This document shows, piece by piece, positions 4,301-17,683 of a DNA stretch of 64,000 nucleotides (position 1 is the first letter of the stretch; every line of letters starts with the position of its first letter). Below the pieces are notes generated by a model. That model ran no database searches. It saw only the letters and a list, made by a program, of their open reading frames with translations, and had not been told where the DNA came from. The stretch spans positions 200,018-264,017 of the forward strand of contig JBGAIM010000006.1 in NCBI GenBank assembly GCA_044225555.1, read 5' to 3'. The position numbers were made by a program, and so were the translations under genes. This stretch comes from Limisphaerales bacterium. Its GTDB lineage: Bacteria; Verrucomicrobiota; Verrucomicrobiia; Limisphaerales; JADLHS01.

Positions 4301-5502
4301 AGCCGCTTTCCTTTATGCTCATTGCGGGTGAGGCCAGCGGGGATTTGCTGGCGGCGGAACTAGTGGGCGAGTTGCGGCAGCAGGTGGTCGCTCGGTTACA
4401 GGACTCGACGTCCGATGTGCAACCGTTGCGAACCGCGCTCGCGCCGCGATTCTTTGGCGCCGGTGGGCCCAAAATGGCGGCGGCGGGGGTGGAACTGGCG
4501 TTTGATCTGACGCAGCACTCGGTGATTGGTTTTGCCGAGGTGCTCAAGAACCTCGGAAAGTTCCGACGGCTGTTTCGTCAGTTGCTGCGCCTGGCAATTG
4601 AACGACAGCCGGACGTGATCATGGGAGTGGACTACGGCGGATTCAATCTGCGGTTCGGCAGGGCGATCAAGAATTATGTCCGGAGGCATCACAGCCAGTT
4701 TGCTCCATGGAATCCAAAGTTGGTGCAATTTGTCTCGCCGCAGGTGTGGGCGTCGCGTCCGGCGAGGGCACAGACGTTGGCGGACAATTACGATCTGCTG
4801 CTGAGTATTTTCCCGTTCGAGAAGGAATGGTATGCGCGGCGGGTGCCGAAATTGCGCGTGGAGTTTGTGGGACATCCGATGATCGGGAGAATGCCGAACG
4901 CCGAGTGCGGAGTGCGGAGTGCGGAACCTAAACCGCAGTGTGTCGTGCTGTTGCCCGGGAGTCGGGCGGATGAGGTGCGGCGGCATTGGCCGGTGGTGGT
5001 GGGCGCCTTTGAATTATTGCGACGGGAATTACCGACGCTAAGCGGCAAGATGATTTTCCCGAACGAGGCCTTGGTTGAAGCCACGAAGAATTCCGGAATG
5101 CCCGCCGGATTGGAAATACAAGTTGGTGGGCTGGCTGAGGCGCTTGCACAAGCTGATCTGGCCATCGCCAAGTCCGGGACGATCACGATGGAATGCGCGG
5201 CGTTCGGCGTGCCGGCGGTGGTGTTCTACAAAACGTCCTGGCCGACCTACGCCATTGGCAAACAAATCGTGACGGTGAAATATGTCGCAATGCCGAACTT
5301 GCTGGCCGGCGAGGCGGTTTATCCGGAGTTCATTCAACATGCGGCCACGCCGGAGAATATTTCGCGCGCGGCGCTGGAATTGTTGCGCGATGAGGTGCGA
5401 CGAAATGGGGTGAAGGCCAGGCTTGCCCAAGTCATCTCGTCGCTCGGTGGGCCGGGCGCGACGGGGCGGGCAGCGAAAGCCATCGTTCGTTTGTTGCCGT
5501 GA
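4297..5502 (+). CDS. lpxB: Lipid-A-disaccharide synthase
   Basis: Motifs MLIAGEASGDLLAAELV, FVSPQVWASR, VGHPM, LLPGSR, KSGTITMECA. The ATG at 4297 overlaps the upstream TGA. The longer ORF from 4231 is judged an upstream extension. Confidence 0.9.
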   Translation: MKPLSFMLIAGEASGDLLAAELVGELRQQVVARLQDSTSDVQPLRTALAPRFFGAGGPKMAAAGVELAFDLTQHSVIGFAEVLKNLGKFRRLFRQLLRLAIERQPDVIMGVDYGGFNLRFGRAIKNYVRRHHSQFAPWNPKLVQFVSPQVWASRPARAQTLADNYDLLLSIFPFEKEWYARRVPKLRVEFVGHPMIGRMPNAECGVRSAEPKPQCVVLLPGSRADEVRRHWPVVVGAFELLRRELPTLSGKMIFPNEALVEATKNSGMPAGLEIQVGGLAEALAQADLAIAKSGTITMECAAFGVPAVVFYKTSWPTYAIGKQIVTVKYVAMPNLLAGEAVYPEFIQHAATPENISRAALELLRDEVRRNGVKARLAQVISSLGGPGATGRAAKAIVRLLP

Positions 5503-5756
5503 AAGACCTGAGTCCAACGTGGATCAAGGTGAAGGGGATTCTCTTCCTGCTGCTCGGTATCGCGGCAGCAACGTTGTTGATTCTGGAGCATCCAAGCTGG
5601 AAGGTTGCCGGCCTGCTTGCGCTGGCCATCTGGTGCTTCTGCCGGTTCTACTACTTCGCGTTCTATGTCATCGAAAAGTATGTGGACTCGAGCTTCAAGT
5701 TTTCCGGCCTTTGGTCGTTCTGCCGCTACCTGATGCGGAAACGGCCCAAACCGTGA
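5499..5756 (+). CDS. Small hypothetical membrane protein (2 predicted TM helices)
   Basis: 85-aa ORF with two hydrophobic stretches (ILFLLLGIAAATLLIL, VAGLLALAIWCFC). The GTG start overlaps the lpxB stop (GTGA), which suggests coupling. No family recognised. Confidence 0.45.
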   Translation: MKDLSPTWIKVKGILFLLLGIAAATLLILEHPSWKVAGLLALAIWCFCRFYYFAFYVIEKYVDSSFKFSGLWSFCRYLMRKRPKP

Positions 5757-5812
5757 GGCAGCCCTCCCAAAAGCCTTGTTTTGCGGCATCCGGTGTGCTG
5801 CAATCAGCCCCG

Positions 5813-6145
5813 ATGCAGCAGTTGGTTCGCAGGTATGTCCGCTCGTCCAGACCCGCCTTTGCCGGTCTGATGGCGGCGATTGTCCTCGTGCTGGCGTTGT
5901 TTGCGTCGAGTGAGAAGCTTCATCTCACGGTTCACCAGAACTCGGATGCTCCGCATCATCTGCCGTGCGCGGTTTGTTCCTTTGCGCAGGGGCAGCTCGA
6001 GATCCCGGTGGCGACTGTGTCTGAAGTCTTTGCCGCTTTGTCCCTCTCATGGACAATTCCTTCCCTGCAAACCGCATTGCCGCCGGAGATTGATTTCTCG
6101 GTCGCGTCGAGCCGCGGTCCGCCCCTTTCCGTTTCTTCCCTGTAA
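5813..6145 (+). CDS. Small exported Cys/His protein, paralog A (DUF2946-like by recollection)
   Basis: ATG at 5813 inside ORF 5423..6145. N-terminal hydrophobic helix, HxxxH...HHLPCAVC motif, C-terminal SRGPP. Aligns with the 10326..10652 product. Confidence 0.5.
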   Translation: MQQLVRRYVRSSRPAFAGLMAAIVLVLALFASSEKLHLTVHQNSDAPHHLPCAVCSFAQGQLEIPVATVSEVFAALSLSWTIPSLQTALPPEIDFSVASSRGPPLSVSSL

Positions 6146-6232
6146 TTCGTTGTTCGTTGTCGTTGGTCCGGCCCGTGTGGGCTGGAGCCTGTTCAAACCT
6201 TTAATTGGCGTGCCCATTGGTGTGGTCACGCC

Positions 6233-7801
6233 GTGATGAACCGTGGAAGAAATGCTATGAAATTAAATTTGGTGAAGTGGTTGAGTGTGATGGGAGCGGT
6301 GGTCGTGAGTGCGGCCTCGGCGCAAGAAACAAATGAAGTGGAGCAGTTGAAGCGCGAGTTGCGCGAGATGCGCGAGCAGATGCGGCGCATGGAGCAGAAA
6401 CTCGAAACGATCGAGCAAAAACCGCCGGTGGCGGCGGTCGCTCCGGCGGAGAAACCGGTGGCAGTTGCCCCACCTGTTGAATCGCCAGCGTCCAGCGTTA
6501 CCAAGCCGTGGTCGCCGAGCGATCCGATTCGTGTCGGCAAGGGCGGCACCTATGCGGAGATCGGTCTGGTTGGGACCTTCGCGGCGGGTGGTTCGACGGC
6601 GAAGGACATCCAGGGTGGCACGCAATTGGGCGGGCACGATCCGAACCAAAACGGCTTCACGGTTCAGGGCGTGGAGATGAACTTGCAGGGCGCCGTGGAT
6701 CCGTATTTCCGCGCCAATGCCAACATCCTGTTCTCGATTGATGCGGAAGGGGAATCGTTCCTCGAAGTGGAGGAGGCCTGGATGGAGACCGTTTCGCTGC
6801 CGTGGAATCTACAGCTTCGTGCTGGTGAAATTCTCACGGACTTCGGTCGCATCAACACGCAGCATCCGCACTCGTGGGGATTTGTGGATTCACCGCTGGT
6901 CGGCGCCCGGCTGCTGGGGCCGGATGGCTTGCGGAATCCGGGAGCGCGGCTGGCGTGGCTCGCGCCCACGCCGTTTTACACCGAGCTGTCGGTCGGCATT
7001 CAGGACAGCCAGGGCGAGCACGCATCAAGCTTTCGCAACTCGGACGCCAATCATGGTGAACTGGGGACTGATGCTTTACCGCCGGACAACGCCGGGTTGC
7101 CCTACGGTTATCGGAATGCCGCCAATGATCGCGGTGTAAACGGACTGGGTGATTTGCTGATTACGCCGCGCCTGACCACGTCGTTTGAACTGACGGATTC
7201 GCAGACGCTGGTGCTGGGCGGATCGGCGGCGCTGGGGCCGAACAGCAGTGGCAGCAGCGGTGACACGATGACGCAGGTTTACGGCCTGGACATTTATTGG
7301 AAATGGAAACCGGCGAATGCCCACGGCGGTTTCCCGTTTGTGTCCTTCCAGACCGAACCGATGGTGATGCGCTATCAACTGGGTGCGTATGACTGGGATT
7401 TGAATGGCAACGGCGCGGCCGATCCTGGCGAACTCGTGAACCCGGCCATCGGGTTGCCGGCGGTGTTGTCCCGGGAAACCGTTACCGACTGGGGTTTCTA
7501 TTCGCAGGTGCTCTACGGTTTCAGCAAGGGCTGGGTGGCCGGTTTGCGCGGTGACTACGTGACGGGCAGCCTGGGGAACTACGAACAACTCGCGCTGACG
7601 CTGGATGGCAATCCCGTCGGGCGCGACCAGTTACGCCGCGAGCGCTGGCGGCTGTCACCGAACCTGACCTGGTATCCGAGTGAATTCTCGAAAATCCGGC
7701 TGCAATACAATTACGACAACCGCGCCGACCTCGGCATCGATCACTCGGTGTGGTTGCAGTTTGAATTCCTGCTGGGTGCGCACGCGGCGCACAAGTTTTA
7801 A
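6233..7801 (+). CDS. Putative outer-membrane beta-barrel protein/porin with an N-terminal coiled coil
   Basis: Signal peptide (VMGAVVVSAASAQE) and a coiled-coil EQLKRELREMREQMRRMEQKLETIEQ. Gly/aromatic-rich alternating body and a terminal aromatic residue (...GAHAAHKF). The start may be the ATG at 6257. Confidence 0.55.
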   Translation: MMNRGRNAMKLNLVKWLSVMGAVVVSAASAQETNEVEQLKRELREMREQMRRMEQKLETIEQKPPVAAVAPAEKPVAVAPPVESPASSVTKPWSPSDPIRVGKGGTYAEIGLVGTFAAGGSTAKDIQGGTQLGGHDPNQNGFTVQGVEMNLQGAVDPYFRANANILFSIDAEGESFLEVEEAWMETVSLPWNLQLRAGEILTDFGRINTQHPHSWGFVDSPLVGARLLGPDGLRNPGARLAWLAPTPFYTELSVGIQDSQGEHASSFRNSDANHGELGTDALPPDNAGLPYGYRNAANDRGVNGLGDLLITPRLTTSFELTDSQTLVLGGSAALGPNSSGSSGDTMTQVYGLDIYWKWKPANAHGGFPFVSFQTEPMVMRYQLGAYDWDLNGNGAADPGELVNPAIGLPAVLSRETVTDWGFYSQVLYGFSKGWVAGLRGDYVTGSLGNYEQLALTLDGNPVGRDQLRRERWRLSPNLTWYPSEFSKIRLQYNYDNRADLGIDHSVWLQFEFLLGAHAAHKF

Positions 7802-7835
7802 CCACGAAGGGACACGAATTAACACGAACCCAATT

Positions 7836-8744
7836 ATGAAAAAACTTTTGCTGGGAACTTTGGCCGCGTTGCTTGCGCTTGGTGCGCAGGCGAAGTTGAA
7901 CGTGGTTGTCACCACCCCTGACCTGGCGGCCATTGCCAGGGAAGTTGGCGGCGACAAGACTGAAATCACCACGCTGGCGCGGCCCACGGAGGATCCGCAT
8001 TTCGTGGATGCGAAGCCCAGCTTCATCGTGAAGCTCAACCGGGCCGATGCGCTGCTGGAGGGCGGTGCGGAACTCGAAGTCGGCTGGCTGCCGACGCTCG
8101 TGCAGGGGGCGCGCAACGAAAAAATCCAGACCGGCCAGCCCGGGCGGATTCTGGGCAACCAGGGCATCGCCATGCGCGAAGTGCCGACAACGTTGGACCG
8201 TTCGCAGGGCGACATCCACGCGGCGGGCAATCCGCATTACCTCGTGGACCCGGAGAATGTGAAGATTGTCGCGCAGCACCTCGCGGCGGCGTTTGGTCAG
8301 TTGGATGCGGCGAACGGCGGGTTCTACAGCGCGAATGCCTCCAAGTTCATCGCCGCCCTCGACGCGAAGCTTGCCGGCTGGCAGGCGCAACTTGCACCCT
8401 TCAAGGGACAGCACGTCGTCGCGTATCACAACTCGTGGGTTTACTTCGCAGAACGGTTTGGGTTTAAGATTGATTTGTTCCTCGAACCCAAGCCAGGCAT
8501 TCCGCCGTCGCCCGCGCACCTGGCTTCCATCATCACGAAGATGAAAGAGGAAAAAGCACGCGTCATCATTGTTGATCCCTATCTGAATCGCAAAACCGCC
8601 GAGACCGTGGCGCGCAGCACGGACGCGACGGTCGTGGACGTGGCGCAATTCCCGGGCGGAGTGAAAGGCACGGACGGCGGCTACATCGCGTTGATGGATT
8701 ACCTGGTGAATTCACTGGCGAAGGCGATGGGCGAGAAGAAATGA
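7836..8744 (+). CDS. Metal ABC transporter substrate-binding protein, ZnuA/TroA family
   Basis: Signal peptide MKKLLLGTLAALLALGAQA and motifs VVTTPDLAAIAREVGGD, EDPHFVDAKPS, GNPHYLVDP, typical of cluster-9 (ZnuA-type) binding proteins. The true start is an ATG inside ORF 7680..8744. Confidence 0.8.
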   Translation: MKKLLLGTLAALLALGAQAKLNVVVTTPDLAAIAREVGGDKTEITTLARPTEDPHFVDAKPSFIVKLNRADALLEGGAELEVGWLPTLVQGARNEKIQTGQPGRILGNQGIAMREVPTTLDRSQGDIHAAGNPHYLVDPENVKIVAQHLAAAFGQLDAANGGFYSANASKFIAALDAKLAGWQAQLAPFKGQHVVAYHNSWVYFAERFGFKIDLFLEPKPGIPPSPAHLASIITKMKEEKARVIIVDPYLNRKTAETVARSTDATVVDVAQFPGGVKGTDGGYIALMDYLVNSLAKAMGEKK

Positions 8745-8762
8745 TGCGCGTCATTCCGTCAG

Positions 8763-8847
8763 GTCTTGGACTGCGCCAGCCCTCTGGCGCTTTGGGCATA
8801 GCAGGCTCACGAACAAAAAGCGGCAGGGGACTGCCGCAGTCCAAGAC
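8763..8847. repeat. Structured palindromic intergenic element (REP/MITE-like)
   Basis: 13-nt perfect inverted arms GTCTTGGACTGCG (8763-8775) and CGCAGTCCAAGAC (8835-8847). They enclose two internal hairpins: GCGCCAG-CCCT-CTGGCGC (8773-8790) and GGCAG-GGGA-CTGCC (8822-8835). Confidence 0.5.
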
Positions 8848-8877
8848 GCTCTGCGATGAATCAAACCGAACTGAATT

Positions 8878-9699
8878 ATGACCGAAATCCTTTCCGTAAT
8901 GAAATGGCCGCTGGTGGCGTGCCTGTTGTTGCCGGGCATCCTGGTTTACTACGGCCTGCACATCATCCGGCGCGAAGTCATCTTCGTTGACCTGGCGCTG
9001 GCGCAGGTGGCGACGCTGGGCACGTGCGTTTGTTTGTACCTCGGTCACGAACCGGATGATCCGCACAATTATTTTTGGTCGCTCGGCTTTACGCTCGTAG
9101 GGGCGGCAGTGTTCACGTTTACGCGCCCACGCAAGCACGCCCGCGTACCGCAGGAAGCTCTGATCGGAATTATCTACGTAGTGGCGGCGGCAGCGGGAAT
9201 CTTGTTGCTGAGCAAGAGCCCGCACGGAAAGGAGGAACTCCAGCGCACGCTCGTGGGCGATCTGCTCACCGTGACTTCGCAGGAAATCTGGAAGACTGCC
9301 GCGCTCTATGCGGTCATCGGCGTGGTGCATTTCATCTTCCGGAAACAGTTCATCAAGCTCTCATTCGATCATGAACATGCGGCAGCCGGAGGACTGGCGG
9401 TGCATTTCTGGGATTTCATGTTCTATGCGCTGTTCGGCTTGATCGTGACGAGCTTTGTGCAAGTTGGCGGCGTACTGATGGTGTTTTCTTACCTGATCGT
9501 CCCGGCGGCGTGCGGCACGTATCTGGTCAATTCGTTGCTCGGACGATTGGCCGTAGGTTGGGGTGTAGCGACATTGGCGAGCGTGGGTGGACTTTACGCC
9601 TCGTTCAAACTCGACGTGCCGACCGGTGCGGCGATTGTCTGCACCCTCGGCCTCGCGCTGCTGGTGTCGGGGGCGATCTCGAAGTGCAGAAGGGTTTGA
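8878..9699 (+). CDS. Metal ABC transporter permease, ABC-3 (ZnuB-like) family
   Basis: 273-aa polytopic membrane protein. The N-terminus LLPGILVYYGLHIIRREVIFVDLALAQVATLG is typical of the ABC-3 family, and it follows the ZnuA-like gene. Confidence 0.8.
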   Translation: MTEILSVMKWPLVACLLLPGILVYYGLHIIRREVIFVDLALAQVATLGTCVCLYLGHEPDDPHNYFWSLGFTLVGAAVFTFTRPRKHARVPQEALIGIIYVVAAAAGILLLSKSPHGKEELQRTLVGDLLTVTSQEIWKTAALYAVIGVVHFIFRKQFIKLSFDHEHAAAGGLAVHFWDFMFYALFGLIVTSFVQVGGVLMVFSYLIVPAACGTYLVNSLLGRLAVGWGVATLASVGGLYASFKLDVPTGAAIVCTLGLALLVSGAISKCRRV

Positions 9700-9777
9700 C
9701 GCCGCGAGCCGGCAAGGCCGGGCCGCCCGGTTTGTCCGGGAGAGGAACTACTGCGGAAATGTGCGTGCCAGTGGGGA

Positions 9778-10185
9778 TCAGTTTGCCGCGAGAGCGACTG
9801 CTCCGTGGTTGTCACAATGGTCGCCGTGCGGGTGATGCAGGTGGCCATTGACCACGTAATCGGTATGCTCGCCGTGGGGCAGGGCGGGGTGACCGCAATT
9901 CGCGCTGTGGGCGTGTAGAGCGGGTTGTTCGCCGGCGCCGTGGCCTGGGGTGCACTGATCGGGATTTGCGGCGCTGACGGCGAGAGTGTGATCATCGACA
10001 TGGCCCGCGTGGTTGTGATGCAAGTGGCCGGCGTCGAGGTAGTCCACATGACCGGCGTGCTGCACCGTGGGATGGCCGCAGCCGGCGCCGTGTTGATGGG
10101 GATGGGATTGCGCGTGCTGGGAATGGGTGGCACAGCCGGCGGCAACCAGCGTGAAGGGGACCAGGAGCGTGAGGAGTTTTTTCAT
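9778..10185 (-). CDS. Histidine/cysteine-rich lipoprotein with two tandem ~45-aa modules (putative metal-binding)
   Basis: ATG at 10185 gives MKKLLTLLVPFTLVAAGC (lipobox). Two repeats follow the pattern CGHPxxxHxxHxDYxxxGHLHHxHxxHxDxH...AAN. Confidence 0.7.
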   Translation of the reverse strand: MKKLLTLLVPFTLVAAGCATHSQHAQSHPHQHGAGCGHPTVQHAGHVDYLDAGHLHHNHAGHVDDHTLAVSAANPDQCTPGHGAGEQPALHAHSANCGHPALPHGEHTDYVVNGHLHHPHGDHCDNHGAVALAAN

Positions 10186-10256
10186 TTGGATTATTGTGGT
10201 TGAAAAGGACGACGAGCGCAGGAGAGCAGAGCCGGATGGCTGCGGGCAAGCGGCGG

Positions 10257-10277
10257 ATTTGCAAGTGACTTGCAAAT
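10257..10277. promoter_or_regulatory. Perfect 10-1-10 palindrome ATTTGCAAGT-G-ACTTGCAAAT, candidate Fur/Zur-type operator
   Basis: Read directly from the sequence. Lies in the divergent intergenic region between the His-rich lipoprotein gene (minus) and the 10326 gene (plus). Confidence 0.5.
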
Positions 10278-10325
10278 ATCATCATTGCCGGCGCGCATGA
10301 GTCTTGCTGAATTGATTGTGCGAAC

Positions 10326-10652
10326 GTGAATGTGAAGCGACAACAATGGTATCAGGCTGCAAACCAGCGCCGCGCAGTGGCGGGCTTGTTGTGCGGACTG
10401 TTCTTATTTGTCCTCGCGCTGGCGCAATTCGAGACACTGCACCGGCTGTTGCATTCGGATGCCGGGAAGGCAACCCACCAATGCGCGGTCACCATGCTCC
10501 AAGGCGGGCAGGTGGATGCGCCCGGCGCCTGTGCCGAGGTGGTTTCGAGCGCGCCCGCCGGGGACATTTGCCTGTTGCCGCAAAATGATTTTGTTGCTTC
10601 GGTCGCCTATTCCCTTCCTCCCAGTTGCGGCCCGCCCGCACTCCTCGCCTGA
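10326..10652 (+). CDS. Small exported Cys/His protein, paralog B (DUF2946-like by recollection)
   Basis: Shares with 5813..6145 a hydrophobic helix, E-x-LH-x2-H motif, H-x-CAV motif and C-terminal S-C-GPP. GTG start. Confidence 0.5.
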   Translation: MNVKRQQWYQAANQRRAVAGLLCGLFLFVLALAQFETLHRLLHSDAGKATHQCAVTMLQGGQVDAPGACAEVVSSAPAGDICLLPQNDFVASVAYSLPPSCGPPALLA

Positions 10653-10796
10653 TCCGTAACCGGCCTTGGCCGCTGACGTCCGCCCTCCACGGTGCGCCGA
10701 CGCGGGGCCAGGGAGAACTTCCTCAGGAATTCGTTGGGTCTGCCGCTGCCCGGGTTCACCGGCGTGTGAACCGAAAGGCGGAGTCATTTCAGTTCC

Positions 10797-11483
10797 ATGA
10801 AACCAAAACGGACGTTGAGTCGTTGTGGTGGGTTTACCTTGATTGAGCTGCTCGTCGTGATTGCGATCATCGCAATCCTCGCGGCACTGCTGCTGCCGGC
10901 CGTGGCGCGAGCGAAGGGCAAGGCCAAAGCCGTTTCGTGCGTGTCGAACCTGCACCAGATCGGTCTGGCGATGAACCTCTATGCCGAGGACGCCAATGGT
11001 TTTCTGCCTGGCACGAGCCATTCCAGCCGGAGCAATTCGTGGATCTACAGCCTCGCCCCCTACCTCGCCAACGTGGACCACATCCGCATTTGTCCTGCTG
11101 ACAAAAAGGGGGACGAGCGTTTGCTGAACCACGGGACGAGTTATGTGATGAATGAATATACGTCCGTGCCGGCGCTCGATCCCTTCGGCAGCCCAATTGC
11201 GAACGAACCTGTCTGGAACAAACTCAGTTCGATTCCCAAACCTTGCAACACGATACTGATTTTTGAGGTGGCGGATCGTGCCGGCACGGGCACCGGACAG
11301 GACCACACACATTCCCGCAATTGGCTCAACGGCTGGAACAGCGTGCTGGATGACATTCAACCCGACCGCCACGGCGTGGCGGCAAATTATCTGTTCGCCG
11401 ACTGGCATGTCGCGGCCTTGAAGGCAGACCAACTCAAGCAACGGATCGTGGCCCGGGACAACTTCGCCCGGCCACCGCAATGA
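10797..11483 (+). CDS. Prepilin-type N-terminal cleavage/methylation domain protein, H-X9-DG (DUF1559-like) family
   Basis: [25 protein letters not shown] pilin-like N-terminus. C-terminal [12 protein letters not shown] matches the H-X9-DG spacing. Confidence 0.8.
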
Positions 11484-11544
11484 AGCCCAGCCAATTTCAC
11501 GGTGCGAGCCGTGAGTCAGCAAGAACCCAGTAGCAAAACCAAAC

Positions 11545-12279
11545 ATGAAAACACAAACCGATGAGATCACCGGTCGCATCCGTCAGCTTGGGCTGGCGGC
11601 GCTGCTGACCACGGGCCTGGCGACCCAGGCACAAACCACGCTGCTCGACGGCCACGTGGACGTGGGCGTTGATTACGATGAAAGCCTCAACGCCTGGAAT
11701 TTGCACGTGCACGATGAAGCCACCGCTTCCGAATATTCTCCGCCGACCGATGCTGTGCTGTTCGTGAAGTATGCCGCGCACAGTTCGTTGAGCACCGACC
11801 CCACGTGGAGTTTCCTTGGCAGCCCCGGCGCGGACATCTGGACGCTGCCCAAGGCGCAGGATCTAAATCTACTGTTCCTGGGCTTTGGTGCGGAGGAGAT
11901 CGCCGACGGGACATTTGCCGGCAACCAATTCACCATGGCACTCACTTCGGTTACCGGACCTGGCCGGTTCGTGGTTTATGATACGGACGCCTTCGGTGCC
12001 CCCCAAGTTTGGATGAATTCCGGGGATGGCATCTCGGGTGCGGATGCGCGGGTATTGTCTTCGGGAGCGCACAGTCATGTGAATTGGGCTTTCACCGCGC
12101 CGGGGGACTACTCGGTGTTCTTCAACGCCTCGGCCATCAGCACGCTCAACGGCCCCACCAGTAGCGGTAGCGTGGAATATCGATTTCATGTGGAAGCCGT
12201 TCCGGAGCCCGGGGCAATGAGTTTGGTCAGTGCTGGTGTACTGACTGGATGGTTGGTTCGCCGCCGACGGCACAACTAA
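11545..12279 (+). CDS. Choice-of-anchor-M / TIGR03769-like surface protein with PEP-CTERM sorting signal
   Basis: LLDGHVDVGVDYDE, LFLGFGAEEI and GAHSHVNWAFTAPGDY resemble the ABC-transporter-associated repeat domain. The C-terminus VPEPGAMSLVSAGVLTGWLVRRRRHN is a PEP-CTERM tail. Confidence 0.55.
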   Translation: MKTQTDEITGRIRQLGLAALLTTGLATQAQTTLLDGHVDVGVDYDESLNAWNLHVHDEATASEYSPPTDAVLFVKYAAHSSLSTDPTWSFLGSPGADIWTLPKAQDLNLLFLGFGAEEIADGTFAGNQFTMALTSVTGPGRFVVYDTDAFGAPQVWMNSGDGISGADARVLSSGAHSHVNWAFTAPGDYSVFFNASAISTLNGPTSSGSVEYRFHVEAVPEPGAMSLVSAGVLTGWLVRRRRHN

Positions 12280-12348
12280 AATGGTTGGTGCGCGCGGTCG
12301 CCGCTTTATTTCTTCCCGGCGGCCGCGCTTCCGACCGCGACGTGACCT

Positions 12349-13404
12349 ATGAAAGCGTTTTGGAGCGTAACGTGGTGGTTTGTGGGCAGCCTGGTGCCGG
12401 TGCTGGCCCAGGTCACAAATCTGGACCATCAGCACATGGACTTCCGGCTCGAGTACGACTCGGCGGCGGTGGGTAGCAATCGGCTGGGCTTGGTGCTCGG
12501 TTATGATCCGGGCCAGCGGGCGACCAACACGGAGGCCTATCTTGTCGGCGGCGCCGGTGCGCAATTAACGATCCCGGCCAATCCCGACTACGCGTTTCTC
12601 GGCGCGCCGGGTGCGCCCGTGTGGGTCCTGCCGCAATCGCAAGTCACCTCGCTGCCGTATCTGGGCATTTCCGCCGAGGACATCCCGCTCGGAGTGTTTG
12701 CGGATCCAATGGAACTGGAGTTGGTCTCCGTGGAAGGTCCCGGCAATTTCTTTTCCTGGTCCGTGAGTGGTGCGGGGAATCCGCCCACGATCAAGTTCAT
12801 TGCGACCAACGGCGTGGTCTCGCCACAGTACCACCTGGCGAACCCGTTTATCGGCAGTCATGAGCACAACAACTGGGCGTTCAGCACCCCGGGGCTCTAC
12901 TGCATTACCCTTCGTGCCAACGGGACGTTTCTCGGTGACGCGACCCATACCGTCGGTCGCAACGTGGCATGGTCGTTTCAAATTCTCCCCCTCCGGCCAT
13001 GGGAGAGTTGGATTGCCACCAACTGGTTGCCGGCAACCTCACCGCTGACCAACGGTGCGACCGCGGATCCCGATGGCGACGGCGTGCCGAACGCCTTCGA
13101 GTATGCGCTCGGCCTGAATCCAAACATCGCTTCAACCACCGGCTTGCCCGCGTTTTCACTGATTGAAACCAATGGGCAGAAGTTTGGAGCGCTGACCTAC
13201 ACGCGAGTCAAAACCGCGACCGACGTAGACTATTCACCCTCGGTGTGCAGCGCATTGGTTGCCGCCGACTGGGCCGTGTTGACCAACACGGTCAGCGTTG
13301 AGGACCACGGCGAAACGGAGAGCGTCACCGTGAGGGATGCGGTTCCATTGTCGACCACCACCCAACGCTTCTTCCAATTCCGCGCAAGATTGAATTACCC
13401 ATGA
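12349..13404 (+). CDS. Choice-of-anchor-M / TIGR03769-like secreted protein (paralog) with a DPDGDG motif and an FFxFR C-terminal module
   Basis: HQHMDFRLEYD, PYLGISAEDIP and GSHEHNNWAFSTPGLY parallel the upstream gene. These are followed by ADPDGDGVPNAFEYALGLNP and a C-terminus ending ...QRFFQFRARLNYP. Confidence 0.55.
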   Translation: MKAFWSVTWWFVGSLVPVLAQVTNLDHQHMDFRLEYDSAAVGSNRLGLVLGYDPGQRATNTEAYLVGGAGAQLTIPANPDYAFLGAPGAPVWVLPQSQVTSLPYLGISAEDIPLGVFADPMELELVSVEGPGNFFSWSVSGAGNPPTIKFIATNGVVSPQYHLANPFIGSHEHNNWAFSTPGLYCITLRANGTFLGDATHTVGRNVAWSFQILPLRPWESWIATNWLPATSPLTNGATADPDGDGVPNAFEYALGLNPNIASTTGLPAFSLIETNGQKFGALTYTRVKTATDVDYSPSVCSALVAADWAVLTNTVSVEDHGETESVTVRDAVPLSTTTQRFFQFRARLNYP

Positions 13405-14255
13405 ACACACTCCAGGAACTCTGCAAATTCACCGCCCAGGTGCCCGGGGCCACCGCAACTCCAGCCGAGCGCGACCAGCGCGGCGCCCACCCGGATGGCC
13501 ACCGGACGGATGTCATCACCATCAAGAATCTGCGCATCGAGTATCGCTCGCGGGAACTCGGCAACCAGACCAAGGTGGCAGTGAACAACCTCTCGCTTTC
13601 GGTGCATGCCGGTGAAGTCTTTGGTTTTCTCGGGCCCAACGGCGCCGGCAAAACCTCGACGATGAACGTCCTGCTCGGTTTTGTTCCACCCATCAGCGGC
13701 GCGGCGAGCATCTTTGGCGTGAATGTCGAGCAGACCATCGCGCGGCAACGGCTTGGGTACCTGCCGGAACTGACGTATTACTACAAGTTTCTCACAGCCG
13801 AAGAATTGTTGCGCTTCTACTCGCGCATCTTTGGAATCGAGCCTGCCGAGCGCGAGCGACGCATCGATGCCGTGTTAAAACTGGTGGAACTGGAGCACGC
13901 CCGCAAACGGCTCATCAAGACCTACTCGAAAGGCATGCAGCAGCGGGTCGGCCTCGCCCAGGCGCTGATCAACAATCCTGACCTGCTCATACTCGACGAA
14001 CCCACCAGCGGGCTCGACCCATTGGGCCGCATGAAGGTGCGTAGCCTCATCCAGCGCCTCAAGAACGAGGGCAAAACGGTATTCTTTTCCTCCCACGAAC
14101 TGGGCGAAGTGGAAACCATCTGCGACCGCGTGGCCATCATGCATCACGGTGACTTGCGTGTCCTGGGGCGGGTGGACGACCTCGCGCGCGAGCATCGGTG
14201 CAACCTCGAACAGTTGTTCCTCAAAATCGTTGGCTTTCAACCCGAGCCGCTTTGA
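13401..14255 (+). CDS. ABC transporter ATP-binding protein (ABC-2/NosF-DrrA-like type)
   Basis: Walker A GPNGAGKTS, signature YSKGMQQR, Walker B LLILDEPTSGLD, H-loop SSHEL. The ATG overlaps the upstream stop (ATGA). Confidence 0.85.
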   Translation: MNTLQELCKFTAQVPGATATPAERDQRGAHPDGHRTDVITIKNLRIEYRSRELGNQTKVAVNNLSLSVHAGEVFGFLGPNGAGKTSTMNVLLGFVPPISGAASIFGVNVEQTIARQRLGYLPELTYYYKFLTAEELLRFYSRIFGIEPAERERRIDAVLKLVELEHARKRLIKTYSKGMQQRVGLAQALINNPDLLILDEPTSGLDPLGRMKVRSLIQRLKNEGKTVFFSSHELGEVETICDRVAIMHHGDLRVLGRVDDLAREHRCNLEQLFLKIVGFQPEPL

Positions 14256-14258
14256 CCT

Positions 14259-15035
14259 ATGAAAAACTCCCTCGCGATCGCCCATGTCGTCCTGCTCGAA
14301 ATGTATCGGCGCAAGGACTTTTACGTGCTGTTCTTCCTCACCGTGCTGATCACCGCCTTGATGGGCTCGGTGAACTTCTTTAACGACCCGAGGATCGTGC
14401 GGTACCTCAAGGAAATCTGCCTCGCGTTAATCTGGGGGTGTGGTCTCCTCATCGCCATCGCGACGACGGCGCGCCAGATTCCGGCCGAACGCGAAAGCCG
14501 CACCATCTTTCCGCTGATGGCCAAGCCCATCACGCGAGGCCAGGTGCTGTTCGGAAAATTTCTCGGCTGCTGGGGTGCGACATGCCTGTCGCTCCTGGCC
14601 TTCTATTTTTTCTTCGGGCTGGTGGTCGCCTCCAAGGAGCACGCATGGCCGCTCGGGAACTACTTTCAGGCCTGGTCGCTGCACTGCGTAATGTCTGCGG
14701 TGCTGGTGGGCCTGACGCTGATCGGTTCCCTCCTGCTTAGTTCCGTGGCCGCCAACATCACCCTCAGCGTGGTGGTGAGCGGCGGCATCCTCTTCGTTGG
14801 CCGGCATCTCAACAAGATCGCCGCGCAGTTGAACGAACTGACCGGTGCGTGCGTGAGCGGTCTCTACTATGCCATTCCACATCTTGAACTGTTTGATGTG
14901 CGGGATCTCATTGTGCACAACTGGCCGTTGATCGGCTGGAACATCTGGGCGCTGGCGGTGGGGTATGCGTTGCTCTACGCCGCGTTGTTGTTCCTGGGCG
15001 CCTGGCTGCTCTTCCGGAGGAAATCGTTTCAATGA
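14259..15035 (+). CDS. ABC-2 family transporter permease
   Basis: Six hydrophobic segments. The motif IPAERESRTIFPLMAKPITRGQVLFGKFLG is typical of ABC2_membrane permeases (NosY/GldF-like). Confidence 0.75.
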   Translation: MKNSLAIAHVVLLEMYRRKDFYVLFFLTVLITALMGSVNFFNDPRIVRYLKEICLALIWGCGLLIAIATTARQIPAERESRTIFPLMAKPITRGQVLFGKFLGCWGATCLSLLAFYFFFGLVVASKEHAWPLGNYFQAWSLHCVMSAVLVGLTLIGSLLLSSVAANITLSVVVSGGILFVGRHLNKIAAQLNELTGACVSGLYYAIPHLELFDVRDLIVHNWPLIGWNIWALAVGYALLYAALLFLGAWLLFRRKSFQ

Positions 15036-16024
15036 AATCGCATCGCGCCTTCGTTTTCTTGGGTGGGTTATTGCTGGTAACGGCCACCGCCGCTGCGGCC
15101 TGGCTGGACCGTTGGTTCATGGAGTGGCCGGGTAATCGCGCCAAAAACGGGAATCCCCTTAGCATAGCCATCGGCGACGGACAGAAGCTCTTCGCTGGAC
15201 ACTTCTATCGCAAAGCCGACGTGTATTACCACAGCGGCATGTATCCGAGCATCTTTGACAACAACGAGTCGTTCAAAACTGCGCACATTGGCGAGGACGC
15301 GGGCGCCACGGGGAGCAGGAACACGGGGGACGAGGCGAAATATCTCGGGGAGGAACATGATCTTATTGATCGCTTCAGCCGCAATTTTTTTCCGTCGCGT
15401 CATACCCATCTGGATGAGGGCGGCCCGAACCGGCATGGTCCTGCTCCTGCCGCTGACACCAAGACTCACGAACACGGCCCCGACGGACAGGTTATCGAAC
15501 TGGGCGGCGGGGACAGCGGCGAAGTGCGGGAGATTCTGCCCTGGCTGAAGTTGGCACAGGAGCTCGACCCCGAGAATCCGTTGACCTACTCGGTGACCTC
15601 GTATTGGTTGCGCAGCCGGATGAACAAGCCGCGCGAGGCCGAACGGTTGTTACGCGAAGGTTTGAAACACCTGCCGAATCATCCGGTGCTGTTGTTCGAG
15701 CTGGGACGGAGTTATTACCAGCCATTTCCTTCTGAACAGGAACGGGCGCGCCGAGTCGAGAGCGATCTCCCTCGCGCGCGCAACATCTGGCGTACCGGGG
15801 TCAGTGCGTGGCGCGAACACGAAGCGAACCAACCCGAGCCCGACGTGTTCATCCTCGAGCAATTGCTGACGCACCTGGCCAAACTCGAAGAGGAAGGCGG
15901 GAATTTTCCGCAGGCGCTAAAATATTGGGAGGCGGCGCAAAAGATCGCCCCGGAGCGGGACGGTATTCCCCGGCAGATTGCGCAGCTCCGCCAGAAGCTT
16001 GCGCCTGTCCCCATCCGACCGTGA
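15032..16024 (+). CDS. Membrane-anchored TPR-like protein with a His-containing linker
   Basis: N-terminal TM helix (FVFLGGLLLVTATAAAAWL), HTHLDEGGPNRHGP...KTHEHGPDG, then TPR-like helices (LAQELDPENPL...LLFELGRSYY). ATGA overlap with the permease gene. Confidence 0.5.
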   Translation: MKSHRAFVFLGGLLLVTATAAAAWLDRWFMEWPGNRAKNGNPLSIAIGDGQKLFAGHFYRKADVYYHSGMYPSIFDNNESFKTAHIGEDAGATGSRNTGDEAKYLGEEHDLIDRFSRNFFPSRHTHLDEGGPNRHGPAPAADTKTHEHGPDGQVIELGGGDSGEVREILPWLKLAQELDPENPLTYSVTSYWLRSRMNKPREAERLLREGLKHLPNHPVLLFELGRSYYQPFPSEQERARRVESDLPRARNIWRTGVSAWREHEANQPEPDVFILEQLLTHLAKLEEEGGNFPQALKYWEAAQKIAPERDGIPRQIAQLRQKLAPVPIRP

Positions 16025-16545
16025 AAGATTCCACGCAACAGCTGGCCTGGGCCCTGAACGCCTGCCGCCGACTCCAACTGCGGCTCACGCCGGTGCGCGA
16101 GAAAGTCCTCGCGTTCCTGGCGGCGCAACGCGTGCCGGTGAGCCTCGCTGAGCTGATGCAAGCCGAGGATTTGCAAGGCGTGTGTGACGCGACGACTGCG
16201 TATCGCACGGTGATGTTGCTCTGCGATGCGGAGGTGCTGCGCCAAGTGGGCTTGCCGGACAAGGTCAGCCTTTTTGTCTTAAATATCCCCGGGGAAAATA
16301 ATCACTTCCTGGTCTGCCGGCAGTGTGGGACGATCACAGAATTGCCCACCGGGTCGCACTGCGAATCCATGGAGCAAGCCGTTGCCGCCTCGCATGGTTA
16401 CAAACAGTTGTATCATGAGCTGCAATTCTTCGGCATTTGTCCAACCTGCCAGAAACAGCCGGCCCGGGTGATCTCCACCAAGTTGCCGGTGGTCGGCTGC
16501 AAACATAGCGCGCAACCGAATCCGAGCCGGCTCCGGGGGCGATGA
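16021..16545 (+). CDS. Fur family transcriptional regulator (Zur-like by context)
   Basis: The GTG at 16021 overlaps the upstream stop. Winged-helix region (LRLTPVREKVLAFLAAQ...SLAELM), then FLVCRQCG...ICPTCQ, a structural CxxC...CxxC zinc site. Confidence 0.7.
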   Translation: MKDSTQQLAWALNACRRLQLRLTPVREKVLAFLAAQRVPVSLAELMQAEDLQGVCDATTAYRTVMLLCDAEVLRQVGLPDKVSLFVLNIPGENNHFLVCRQCGTITELPTGSHCESMEQAVAASHGYKQLYHELQFFGICPTCQKQPARVISTKLPVVGCKHSAQPNPSRLRGR

Positions 16546-16710
16546 CAACCGCGTGGGGAAGGGATGCCATACCACACTGCGGGCGCGCAGTCCCCAATCG
16601 CCGCCGGCTGCGCAAGCCAGGCTGCCGCTGCCTGGAAAATCAGACGCATGTGAACTTAAGTTCTGAGTTAGCACAACTTGGGTGGCTTGCTGAAGACTCA
16701 AAAAAATTCT

Positions 16711-16726
16711 TGTGAATTATTTCACA
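16711..16726. promoter_or_regulatory. CRP/FNR-type dyad TGTGA-N6-TCACA upstream of the atp operon
   Basis: TGTGAATTATTTCACA read directly, ~85 nt upstream of the atpB start. Confidence 0.3.
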
Positions 16727-16808
16727 GCGGGGCAATCTGCGCGTCCTTTCGTCGCCGGGTTTGCGCTTTCGCGCGGGGTGTTAGCGACGAGGTGGTTTCA
16801 GAAACTCG

Positions 16809-17285
16809 ATGCGATTGCTTAAAATCATTCTGGCGTCCGCTTTGTTGGTGGCTGTGCCGACAGTGCTTGTGCAGGCTGCAACGGGCGATGTGGCTGCCGT
16901 GGAACAGACCGCGCAGGCGGTTGTGACGGGAGCCGAACATGCAGCCGAGGCGGCAGCTCACGATGTCGAACATGCGGCGGCACGGGCAGAGCACAGTGAA
17001 GGTCTTCCCGCGGCGGCTCCGAGAATTAAGGTCGGCCCGTTGGAGGTGACGAACTCAATGATCCTCACCTGGTGCATCGCCCTTTTCCTGATTGTGTTTG
17101 CCCAGGTCGCCACCCGGAACATCAAGGCCGTACCGCAAGGCGCGCAGAATTTCTGGGAATGGCTGGTCGAGGCGCTCTACGGTTTCCTGGAGGGCATCAT
17201 CGGGCCCGATCTGGTCAAAAAGACCTTCTGGTTTTTCGCGACGGTGTTCATCTTCATTTTGTTCACCAATTGGCGATGGCGATGA
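16809..17285 (+). CDS. atpB: F0F1 ATP synthase subunit a, N-terminal part (signal-like, His/Glu-rich extension plus TM1-TM2); reading frame ends prematurely
   Basis: PQGAQNFWEWLVE...FWFFATVFIFILFTNW matches the first half of subunit a. The frame then reads RWR-stop at 17283-17285. Confidence 0.75.
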   Translation: MRLLKIILASALLVAVPTVLVQAATGDVAAVEQTAQAVVTGAEHAAEAAAHDVEHAAARAEHSEGLPAAAPRIKVGPLEVTNSMILTWCIALFLIVFAQVATRNIKAVPQGAQNFWEWLVEALYGFLEGIIGPDLVKKTFWFFATVFIFILFTNWRWR

Positions 17286-17683
17286 TCTTCTTCGTCTGCT
17301 GGACGATCTGGGCGTTGCAGGCCAATGGGCCGGGCGGATTCATCCTGCATTTGTTTGGACCCAAGGGCGACACAACGGGGCTCTTGAAGATGTTGATGAT
17401 TCTGGTGTTTCTCCTGGTGGGCGTTTTGGAAGTGGTGTCCATCGTATTCCGTCCGGTGTCACTCAGCTTCCGGCTCTACGGCAACATTTTTGCCGGTGAG
17501 AACATGCTCGAATCCATGGCCATCATGGGTGGTCCGGCGTTTGGCTGGCTGCTCGCCTTGCCATTCTATGCGATGGAGCTTTTGGTTGGTTTGGTGCAGG
17601 CGCTGGTGTTCATGTTGTTGACGTCCGTGTTCACCCTGTTGATTTGTCAGCACGAAGAGGGACACGAGCACGCGCATCACTAA
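17282..17683 (+). CDS. atpB: F0F1 ATP synthase subunit a, C-terminal part (TM3-TM5 with the essential Arg), in a different frame
   Basis: (LAMA)MIFFVCWTIWAL...FRPVSLSFRLYGNIFAGE...LVQALVFMLLT is the conserved C-terminal half of subunit a. The ATG at 17282 overlaps the TGA of the N-terminal part; ATG 17276 and TTG 17270 are alternative starts. Confidence 0.7.
   Translation: MIFFVCWTIWALQANGPGGFILHLFGPKGDTTGLLKMLMILVFLLVGVLEVVSIVFRPVSLSFRLYGNIFAGENMLESMAIMGGPAFGWLLALPFYAMELLVGLVQALVFMLLTSVFTLLICQHEEGHEHAHH

Follow-up and report, generated by a model that had tools for sequence, protein, structure and literature searches.

The DNA analysed here, a window of 64,000 nucleotides from contig JBGAIM010000006.1 of a Limisphaerales bacterium, contains between lpxB and the atp operon a run of genes (positions 5813-16545) that encode metal-uptake components, surface proteins and a regulator of the Fur family. 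The genes were mapped from a list of open reading frames (ORFs), and families were assigned by hidden Markov model (HMM) searches against Pfam and NCBIfam (Table 1). An earlier prediction made from the sequence alone (the original prediction) had listed the same genes; all of them are ORFs at or near the positions it gave, and its family guesses mostly held, with matches to PF01297, PF00950, TIGR03769, NF038134 and ABC2_membrane-type families. The genes can be divided into three modules. Module A (5813-9699) consists of a small putative leader ORF (smA), a porin-like outer-membrane (OM) protein, a ZnuA-type binding protein with three histidine ligands and an ABC-3 permease of the ATP-binding cassette (ABC) type. 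Module B (10257-13404 and 16021-16545) consists of a TTGCAA-N5-TTGCAA operator, a second putative leader ORF (smB), a pseudopilin, two choice-of-anchor-M proteins (CAM1 and CAM2) and the Fur-family regulator. Module C (13401-16024), an optional insert, consists of an ABC ATPase, an ABC-2 permease and a tetratricopeptide-repeat (TPR) protein. From CAM2 to the Fur-family gene, adjacent genes overlap or almost abut, with overlapping stop and start codons. The base composition is flat across the region, giving no sign of recent acquisition, and megablast found no plasmid match for the region as a whole. The remainder of the window is occupied by the atp operon, a histidyl-tRNA synthetase (HisRS) gene and fucose/glycoside-hydrolase genes.

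Table 1. Genes and other features of the 5813-16545 region, in window coordinates.
Feature	Position	Strand	Basis and remarks
smA	5813-6145	+	110 aa; putative CruR/CutF-like (DUF2946-type) upstream leader ORF, from motifs, spacing and operon position
smA-porin intergenic leader	6146-6256	+	conserved hairpins in an alignment of 12 loci
Porin-like outer-membrane beta-barrel	6257-7801 (ORF opens at 6233)	+	Foldseek with AlphaFold2 (AF2) model; signal peptide, N-terminal coiled coil
ZnuA-type (cluster A-I) periplasmic metal-binding protein	7836-8744	+	PF01297, E 6e-53
Inverted repeat	8763-8847	+	in the znuA-permease spacer (133 bp); 31-nt arms, 87% complementary, 23 nt apart
ABC-3 (ZnuB-type) permease	8878-9699	+	PF00950, E 9e-39
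His-rich lipoprotein	9778-10185	-	divergent from smB across the operator
Operator-like palindrome ATTTGCAAGTGACTTGCAAAT	10257-10277	none	10-1-10 inverted repeat, core TTGCAA-N5-TTGCAA
smB	10326-10652	+	putative divergent CruR-like leader ORF, from motifs, spacing and hhalign
Two-helix RNA stem-loop	10735-10799	+	covariance model; ends ~14 nt before the pseudopilin ATG
Pseudopilin, type II secretion/type IV pilin-like, special DUF1559 subfamily	10797-11483	+	N_methyl and DUF1559
CAM1	11545-12279	+	choice-of-anchor-M/TIGR03769 protein; signal peptide and PEP-CTERM anchor
CAM2	12349-13404	+	second choice-of-anchor-M protein; NF038134 and TIGR03769
ABC ATPase, DrrA/GldA/NodI (ABC-2) type	13401-14255	+	ABC_tran; start overlaps the CAM2 stop
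ABC-2 family permease	14259-15035	+	PF12679 (ABC2_membrane_2)
Membrane-anchored TPR protein, His-containing linker	15032-16024	+	TPR match; always with the ABC-2 pair
Fur-family regulator	16021-16545	+	PF01475, 43 bits vs 23.1; last gene of the operon

In order to see how these genes are arranged elsewhere, about 90 related loci were compared overall. The window proteins were mapped onto 79 loci anchored on CAM1 homologues, which came from species-representative genomes, nearly all of them Verrucomicrobiota metagenome-assembled genomes (MAGs). The smB-pseudopilin-CAM1-CAM2 core is widely conserved. The pseudopilin gene lies immediately 5' of CAM1 in about 55 of the 79 loci, CAM2 follows CAM1 in most of them, smB was found by tblastn in 30 and the Fur-family gene in 29, the latter directly following the core where the ABC-2 trio is absent. 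Look-ups anchored on the pseudopilin yielded the same cassette, with CAM1 following the pseudopilin, in 5/5 loci. As a negative control, 80 metagenome loci with generic H-X9-DG pilins contained no CAM, smB or Fur homologue; the scan that supplied them was dominated by the generic [GA]FTLIELLV pattern, and its distant pilins were 28-68% identical over partial lengths and in no case equipped with the DHTH motif.

Module A forms a stand-alone four-gene operon in three loci (L080, L082 and L083) and adjoins the core in about ten close relatives, with or without the gene for the divergent His-rich lipoprotein, and module B is mostly found without module A. Module C sits between CAM2 and the Fur-family gene in some relatives and also beside CAM arrays that have no pseudopilin (L045, L062 and L071); the ABC-2/TPR trio is conserved in these three and in L001, L005, L007, L011, L164 and L165. 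The full composite is kept in about ten relatives (L001, L005, L006, L007, L010, L011, L030, L081, L164 and L165). In addition, arrays of CAM genes adjoin canonical ZnuA-ZnuC-ZnuB sets in L033, L045, L052 and L073 and partial sets in L050, L068, L074 and L079. Because the modules occur separately in other loci, we conclude that the region is a lineage-specific juxtaposition of separable modules with functionally related genes, and not one machine. The conserved neighbourhood expected in the original prediction was thus found for the core and, in about ten relatives, for the composite; elsewhere the modules go their separate ways. The pairing of TIGR03769/choice-of-anchor-M proteins with ZnuA-type transporters, to which it had drawn attention, recurs independently in many Verrucomicrobial loci, and synteny across the relatives confirms the partnership of the pseudopilin and the ABC-2 trio as genuine and conserved.

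The small proteins smA and smB are paralogues (31% identity, E 4e-9). As read from the sequence, each has a hydrophobic export segment behind basic residues (AFAGLMAAIVLVLALFA in smA and AVAGLLCGLFLFVLALA in smB). The motifs of smA are L-H-x3-H, H-H-x2-C52-x-x-C55 (C52-A-V-C55) and R101-G-P-P104; the spacing from C55 to R101 is exactly 45 residues, and a tail of 6 residues follows RGPP. Those of smB are L-H39-x3-H43-x-D45, H51-x-C53-x-x-T56 (C53-A-V-T56) and C101-G-P-P104, with 44 residues from T56 to C101 and a 4-residue tail after CGPP. smA heads its operon in all relatives, and the leader position at the operon start was conserved in all loci examined. The spacers to the next gene are long (111 nt from smA to the ATG at 6257 and 144 nt from smB to 10797). 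An smB-like ORF was seen by eye 5' of the pseudopilin gene in most pseudopilin-bearing loci; these ORFs share the export segment, L-H-x3-H-x-D, H-x-C-x-x-T and a C-terminal (R/C)(G/A)PP located 3-4 residues before the stop, and in the more distant ones C-x-x-C replaces H-x-C-x-x-T. The spacing between Cxx[C/T] and the arrest motif was 44 or 45 residues in 41/41 locus sequences. A phmmer scan of 1.84 billion representatives with smB gave 497 relatives. Among the best 150 of these 497, which were inspected, 142 had the arrest motif, again 3-4 residues before the end, and 139 had a His at position -2; of the 142, 136 showed the 44/45 spacing, 117 had CxxT and 3 had CxxC. The conserved ligand set of the smB-type family is three His, one Asp and one Cys.

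The DUF2946 model PF11162, one of those that the original prediction had named for HMM searches, fails on the window copies and succeeds on some of their counterparts. At the gathering threshold of 23.7 bits, neither protein of the window is recognised (12.5 bits and E 0.25 for smA, no match for smB), and 0/84 members of the smB-type family are detected. The CxxC-type positional orthologues in L032, L034, L037 and L049 pass with 24.6-30.6 bits, and the smA orthologue in L081 carries a precomputed faint DUF2946 match. An hhalign comparison of the smB-type profile with the DUF2946-positive positional orthologues gave an end-to-end alignment (probability 97.9%, E 5.6e-13). Two DUF2946 leaders have been characterised. 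CruR of Bordetella pertussis (Bp2923) has an export signal, a CXXC motif and a C-terminal RAPP separated by 45 residues, and is first in its operon, ahead of a long spacer; the nascent exported chain senses copper via CXXC, which relieves the arrest at RAPP and leads to Rho-dependent termination before the next gene, and CruR homologues head copper operons (PMC9426467). In Rhodobacter capsulatus, copper-induced stalling on CutF melts a stem-loop over the ribosome-binding site of cutO (bioRxiv 10.1101/2025.02.05.636593). smA and smB are most likely stalling regulatory leader peptides of the CruR/CutF (DUF2946) kind; a carrier protein would have no need of the arrest-peptide geometry (the 44-45-residue ruler and the C-terminal PP). 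Judged by its profile and motifs, the H-x-C-x-x-T form makes up a large, hitherto unrecognised branch of the DUF2946 family, comprising about 500 clusters, with an altered ligand set.

A promoter-like block, CTTGT...GGCAT-N5-(T/G)TGCT...AAT, lies 5' of smA (5757-5812) and is conserved in L001, L006, L007, L010 and L011. It ends only about 10 nt before the smA ATG, implying a nearly leaderless mRNA. We note that the GG-N10-GC spacing within this block resembles that of a sigma-54 promoter. Scans of 5400-17000 for consensus promoters and terminators gave site numbers not above those in shuffled sequence.

The spacer between smB and the pseudopilin gene contains a conserved RNA stem-loop, whose 3' arm overlaps a purine-rich, Shine-Dalgarno-like stretch. 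A covariance model (R1) built from 22 sequences gave 29 matches at E<0.01, all of them 5' of a pseudopilin gene and 28 at the cassette position; 6 of the 29 were in loci outside the model-building set. In the alignment, which was itself fitted to the covariance model, compensatory changes occur in 13/13 base pairs, 78% of the alignment cells are paired, whereas shuffles reach 63% and slid controls no more than 51%, and the covariation score is 0.52 as opposed to 0.27, with 0/500 shuffles reaching the observed values. Single-sequence folding recovered the architecture in 28/52 loci, with 28 different helix sequences, compared with 13% of shuffles. Folding of the whole smB-pseudopilin spacer was not more stable than expected (z = -0.1), and RNAalifold on a crude spacer alignment gave fragments only; the stem-loop became clear after local analysis and realignment to the covariance model. 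C is abundant and G scarce at the 3' end of smB and in the first part of the spacer. The C-rich spacer together with the arm over the Shine-Dalgarno stretch makes both Rho loading and shielding of the ribosome-binding site possible.

The perfect palindrome pointed out in the original prediction is confirmed as a 10-1-10 inverted repeat that is unique in the window, where none would be expected by chance. It lies 49 bp 5' of smB and 72 bp 5' of the lipoprotein gene. In 1.2 Mb of related loci, TTGCAA-N5-TTGCAA was found at 33 sites, compared with 0-3 in shuffles (about 1 expected). Twenty-four of the 33 sites are 480-590 bp upstream of the pseudopilin start, that is, just 5' of smB, and most of the remaining ones are just upstream of CAM or pseudopilin genes. 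In close relatives the operator is placed exactly 67 bp before the smB start, and it was also present in 4/5 further loci. These comparisons identify the palindrome as a conserved, predicted operator that belongs to module B alone. The Fur-family regulator, product of the last gene of the operon, conserves C-R-Q-C and C-P-T-C (a Cys4 structural zinc site), as do the cassette regulators in an alignment of 23. Its best match in the Protein Data Bank (PDB) was 3mwm (E 9e-13), annotated as a "putative metal uptake regulation protein", which we take to be Zur of Streptomyces coelicolor. The operator at the cassette promoter co-occurs with the regulator gene, and the co-encoded Fur-family protein is the obvious candidate for binding TTGCAA-N5-TTGCAA.

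The pseudopilin has a prepilin motif (PF07963, 33.6 bits; TIGR02532, 30.7 bits), and its PF07596 match covers residues 39-90 only; it is below the GspG threshold. The H-X9-DG motif ascribed to it in the original prediction has to be corrected: the C-terminal motif is H192-X9-D202-W-H204, with position 203 variable among orthologues, and TIGR04294 did not match in the NCBIfam search. H75, E157, D169-H-T-H172, H192-X9-D202-x-H204 and C48/C99 are invariant in the orthologues. A literature search found no functional publication on DUF1559/H-X9-DG proteins.

CAM1 and CAM2 are paralogous (32% identity, E 2e-22). Both exceed the cut-offs of NF038134 (130.8 and 99.3 bits, respectively; cut-off 55) and TIGR03769 (39.7 and 33.5 bits; cut-off 30.9). 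CAM1 bears the PEP-CTERM anchor noted in the original prediction (TIGR02595, 17.2 bits against a cut-off of 16); at the corresponding place CAM2 has a C-terminal extension of about 150 residues with a D-P-D-G-D-G...E-Y motif. Conserved residues of CAM1 are H37, D39, H54, H56, E117, E118, D167, H176 and N180, and the hallmark of the family is G-x-H176-x-H-x-N-W-x-F. The AF2 model of CAM1 is all-beta (pLDDT 86). H37/D39 and H54/H56 lie on neighbouring strands of one hairpin; a metal site is plausible. No relative was found in the PDB, either with Foldseek (best E 6e-3, TM <0.3) or with a profile search (best E 0.67), and the function of CAM1 therefore cannot be read from its fold. In TIGR03772, the N-terminal part corresponds to CAM1 and the C-terminal part to the window ZnuA, which means that both are fused in the actinobacterial anchored-repeat binding protein. 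The actinobacterial equivalog cut-offs were not reached (TIGR03773, 88 vs 190; TIGR03772, 79 vs 350; TIGR03770, 89 vs 297 bits). In CAM-array loci without a pseudopilin, we also observed a recurrent uncharacterised family of 370-460 aa with a signal peptide (L053:5353-6549, L071:7973-9088, L073:2226-3359 and L078:11346-12725), which may be another CAM partner.

In module A, the start of the OM protein is most likely the ATG at 6257 and not 6233 as first proposed, since orthologue alignments begin at residue 9. Its H-P-H and G-G-H-D-P-N motifs are invariant, and it ends in Phe; 3334 homologues were found, and no Pfam or NCBIfam family matched. Its AF2 model of about 16 strands has a pLDDT of only 56, and with this model the top Foldseek matches were OprO/OprP/OmpF/AlgE (E ~1e-10, probability 1.0, TM 0.4-0.6). 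The ZnuA-type protein has three His ligands (in DPH, NPH and YHNS), no Asp ligand and no His-rich loop. In cluster A-I proteins, a His at the third ligand position is characteristic of zinc binders and a Glu of manganese or iron binders. The best PDB matches, in which the three His are aligned, were 5kzj, 6xpn and 5w56 ("periplasmic solute binding protein", Paracoccus-type), presumably AztC of Paracoccus. AztC was also the best NCBIfam match, below its cut-off, and none of the equivalog thresholds was reached (AztC, 118 vs 350; ZnuA, 63 vs 268; AztB, 88 vs 280; ZnuB, 49 vs 284 bits). The znuA-permease spacer varies from 32 to 235 bp among relatives, and the inverted repeat in it may act in mRNA stability or processing and set how much binding protein is made relative to permease.

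Every module-A operon examined, in the window and in the relatives, lacks an ATPase gene. The original prediction was right that no ABC-3 ATPase is nearby: the only ABC ATPase of the window is of the ABC-2 type and just about 31% identical to the ZnuC-type ATPases of related loci. We rejected this ATPase as the motor of the ABC-3 permease, since L006, L010, L030 and L080-L083 have module A but not module C. Two side observations concern the surroundings of module A. An IscA/HesB-type Fe-S biogenesis gene (PF01521) lies directly 3' of the permease gene in 2/3 of the stand-alone operons (L080:13469-13819 and L083:11568-11963), and a T2SSE/PilB-type secretion ATPase gene, the only secretion-machine gene near any cassette, lies directly 5' of the DUF2946-porin-ZnuA operon in L081 (1563-2786).

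The His-rich lipoprotein contains two C-G-H...H-x-D-Y...G-H-L-H-H...H-x-D-x-H modules and matched no family in Pfam or NCBIfam. Its gene is in the same divergent position in L005, L006, L010, L030, L038 and L081.

As to the metal, zinc is the probable one. When 146 ORFs that flank the cassettes were surveyed with Pfam, the commonest families were cobW/COG0523 (4), SCO1 (3), AP_endonuc_2 (3), ZIP (3), CobW_C (3), MerC (3), ZnuA (2) and ABC-3 (2). A ZIP gene directly follows the Fur-family gene in the closest relatives (L001, L004 and L011), in L062 a COG0523 gene separates the CAM genes from the ABC-2 trio, and in L078 one stands beside the Fur-family gene. We count these neighbours, the ZnuACB sets, the three-His ZnuA and the TIGR03772 fusion for zinc. 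The ZIP genes (L001:13527-14564, L004:3988-4947 and L011:14983-15879) lie between the Fur-family gene and the atp operon; at this position the window has only a 263-bp spacer (16546-16808), and the ZIP gene was apparently lost or never gained. Other systems point the same way: the anchored-repeat cluster and the CmrA surface proteins of Corynebacterium diphtheriae are repressed by zinc via Zur (PMC6711530), and in Caulobacter an ABC-2 transporter is under Zur control and a DUF2946 gene heads the czrCBA Zn/Cd efflux operon (PMC4176598). The metal theme and the Fur-family link of the original prediction are borne out, and zinc, which it had favoured, is also the metal best supported here.

We therefore put forward, with moderate confidence, that the region is a zinc-scarcity response locus of a Limisphaerales/Pedosphaerales-like Verrucomicrobium, built from separable modules under leader and Fur control. 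Module A would serve TonB-independent import: the porin-like channel with its conserved His motifs would admit Zn(II), the three-His ZnuA-type protein would bind periplasmic zinc, and the ABC-3 permease would import it, powered by an ATPase encoded elsewhere. In module B, the pseudopilin, anchored in the inner membrane, would bear the invariant His/Asp cluster, and the two extracytoplasmic CAM proteins, of novel fold and one of them PEP-CTERM-anchored, may capture zinc or hand it to a binding protein or transporter, a role modelled on the way in which Pht, ZinT or AztD serve their partners. Module C may assist zinc capture in some way, and the divergent His-rich lipoprotein could buffer or chaperone metal. 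When metal is sufficient, the Fur-family protein would repress operon B and the lipoprotein gene at TTGCAA-N5-TTGCAA. The nascent chains of smA and smB would report periplasmic metal through their His/Cys ligands and alter the arrest at R/C-G-P-P, and the arrest would set downstream expression by one of two routes, Rho-dependent termination within the long C-rich spacer or the conserved stem-loop that covers the ribosome-binding site.

Several observations weigh against this proposal. The TTGCAA operator is absent upstream of smA, that is, of the ZnuA operon. The Fur/Zur character given to the regulator in the original prediction stands as regards the FUR domain and the Cys4 site and is not borne out as regards Zur: the protein has no known Zur sensing ligands in comparison with 3mwm (D-H-H-H-H there corresponds to E-N-N-H-F, and an upstream Cys of 3mwm appears to align with Asn) and in the 23-regulator alignment, and it reached no Zur or Fur equivalog threshold (Zur, 40 vs 167 bits). 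The 64-kb window contains no ZnuC-type gene. That the CAM proteins and the pseudopilin would bind metal is suggested only by their conserved His, Asp and Glu residues. A simple occlusion switch, in which a ribosome stalled on the PP codons toggles the stem-loop, was rejected, since the mean pairing of the Shine-Dalgarno stretch was 0.56 both with and without the stalled ribosome (27 loci). Finally, copper is the metal sensed by the two characterised DUF2946 leaders, CruR and CutF, smA retains CxxC, and SCO1/SenC genes (3 ORFs in apparently two loci, L020 and L026) and 3 MerC-family ORFs were found near cassettes.

The last of these points belong to an alternative in which the locus handles copper or another thiophilic metal, with copper-sensing leaders as in Bordetella and Rhodobacter, copper-binding CAM and pseudopilin proteins and a NosFY-like ABC-2 trio. 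The permease family PF12679, which we take to contain NosY, and PepSY_TM genes near cassettes in a few loci would fit it as well. We nevertheless consider it unlikely, given that the importer is a three-His ZnuA/ABC-3 pair, and we know of no copper-importing member of this class. The ZIP, COG0523 and ZnuACB neighbours outnumber the copper-type ones, the actinobacterial TIGR03769 clusters respond to zinc through Zur, and the DUF2946 family also supplies the leading gene of Caulobacter czrCBA. In addition, most smB-type leaders have Thr in place of the second Cys, leaving the three His, one Asp and one Cys as ligands.

The separability of the modules, with B usually lacking A, raises another possibility, namely that only module A imports metal and that the pseudopilin-CAM-CAM set has a surface, adhesion or matrix function, the dedicated pseudopilin aiding PEP-CTERM export; its Fur-family regulation and its place beside the importer would then be coincidental. 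PEP-CTERM proteins are generally tied to exopolysaccharides and the formation of flocs, no structure related to the CAM fold has been solved from which a function could be read, and the C. diphtheriae homologues were described by their authors as "surface-anchored proteins of unknown function" (PMC6711530). This explanation is quite improbable in our estimation, because CAM genes stand beside ZnuACB, COG0523 and ZIP genes repeatedly and in independent arrangements, a CAM-like domain is fused to a ZnuA domain in TIGR03772, CAM1 and the pseudopilin have invariant His/Asp positions, and the cassette bears a metal-type leader peptide and a Fur-family regulator. The original prediction had gone in the opposite direction and assembled all 13 products into one envelope-spanning metal relay, with the small Cys/His proteins as exported carriers. 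The genes are indeed co-localised, co-directional and tightly packed, and about ten relatives keep them together. The independence of the modules in most genomes speaks against a single machine, and the geometry of the small proteins is that of cis-acting arrest leaders; we regard the relay as very unlikely.

Returning to the zinc-scarcity reading, a more far-reaching form of it can be offered only tentatively. The H-x-C-x-x-T...(R/C)(G/A)PP proteins might be a zinc-responsive branch of the CruR/CutF leaders, controlling a previously unknown zinc-capture apparatus (the pseudopilin and the CAM pair, in some lineages with an ABC-2/TPR motor) that would pass zinc from the surface to inner-membrane importers. 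A search of the available literature found no description of the pseudopilin-CAM cassette or of a zinc-type CruR. Metal sensing by a nascent exported leader peptide has so far been demonstrated in just two Proteobacteria, and for no metal but copper. With about 500 clusters that keep the arrest ruler, swap the ligand motif and head zinc-type genes in another phylum, the generality of this sensing principle for metals becomes directly testable; a zinc-responsive branch, if true, would be the first non-copper case of trans-membrane metal sensing by a stalled ribosome-nascent chain. The cassette would also give a first functional context to one subfamily of the abundant, unexplained "H-X9-DG" pseudopilins of the Planctomycetes-Verrucomicrobia-Chlamydiae (PVC) group and, likewise, to the choice-of-anchor-M/TIGR03769 domain, which has no solved structure. 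The actinobacterial relatives of the CAM proteins are among the most strongly Zur-regulated genes of C. diphtheriae. The widespread ATPase-less porin-ZnuA-ZnuB operon, with its 3334 porin homologues, suggests TonB-independent passage of zinc across the outer membrane.

Some further observations were made at the margins of the region and in the sample. An 85-aa ORF with two membrane helices (5499-5756) overlaps the lpxB stop by 4 nt, matches no family and is 83% identical to its counterpart at the same place in L010; it seems to be coupled to lpxB and not to the metal locus. The ATP synthase subunit a gene (16809-17683) appears split between two ORFs, 16809-17285 and 17072-17683, which overlap in different frames; the split could reflect a frameshift or an assembly error, and the C-terminus of the product is His-rich (HEEGHEHAHH). 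Seven MAG contigs titled "uncultured Bifidobacterium/Bifidobacteriaceae" (L001, L004, L005, L006, L010, L017 and L046) bear the Verrucomicrobial cassette, its proteins being 55-90% identical to those of the window, and these public labels are evidently wrong.

The leaders of the window resemble CruR and CutF in being small exported proteins encoded first in a metal operon, with a Cys motif 44-45 residues before a C-terminal R-x-P-P-type motif and a tail of 3-6 residues behind it. A long spacer separates them from the next gene, and a stem-loop is found at the ribosome-binding site downstream, a feature reported for cutO too. They differ in being Verrucomicrobial, whereas the published CruR survey is mainly of Proteobacteria, and in their motifs, since smB and about 80% of its family have H-x-C-x-x-T with extra conserved His/Asp residues and the arrest motif frequently reads RGPP or CGPP. 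The downstream genes of the CruR/CutF systems encode TonB-dependent transporters, PepSY proteins or a multicopper oxidase, whereas those in the window encode the porin, ZnuA and ABC-3 proteins or the pseudopilin and surface proteins, and the metal is probably zinc. Compared with ZnuABC and AztABCD, the window likewise has a three-His cluster A-I binding protein, without a His-rich loop and closest in sequence to AztC, but has no ZnuC/AztA gene and includes a dedicated porin-like OM protein in the operon. As with AztD, ZinT and the streptococcal Pht proteins, accessory secreted proteins that could donate zinc are encoded beside the binding protein, although those of the window are unrelated in sequence and fold. 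Module C is similar at the family level to the ABC-2 transporter ZnuGHI, which is controlled by the zinc-responsive Fur-family regulator Zur in Caulobacter crescentus (PMC4176598); it has one permease and a TPR membrane protein, whereas ZnuGHI has two permeases. The pseudopilin shares with the H-X9-DG DUF1559 proteins the class III signal peptide (G|FTLIELLVV), the DUF1559 N-terminal region and a C-terminal H-X9-D; its subfamily is distinguished by the invariant Q-D-H-T-H-S-R-N-W and H-X9-D-x-H and by always being followed by CAM genes, and, unlike in type II secretion, no secretion-machine genes lie beside it in the window.

The closest parallel for the CAM genes is the actinobacterial anchored-repeat cluster (TIGR03769-TIGR03773; C. 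diphtheriae troA-dip0445 and CmrA), in which TIGR03769/choice-of-anchor-M surface proteins are likewise coupled to a ZnuA/ABC-3 importer and to a Fur-family regulator, there Zur. The host of the window cluster is a diderm, and its CAM proteins end in PEP-CTERM or another C-terminal domain, whereas the actinobacterial TIGR03769 proteins are cell-wall anchored. Its binding protein has no fused N-terminal repeat domain and its importer operon no ATPase gene, and to the shared elements it adds a dedicated pseudopilin, leader peptides and the ABC-2 trio.

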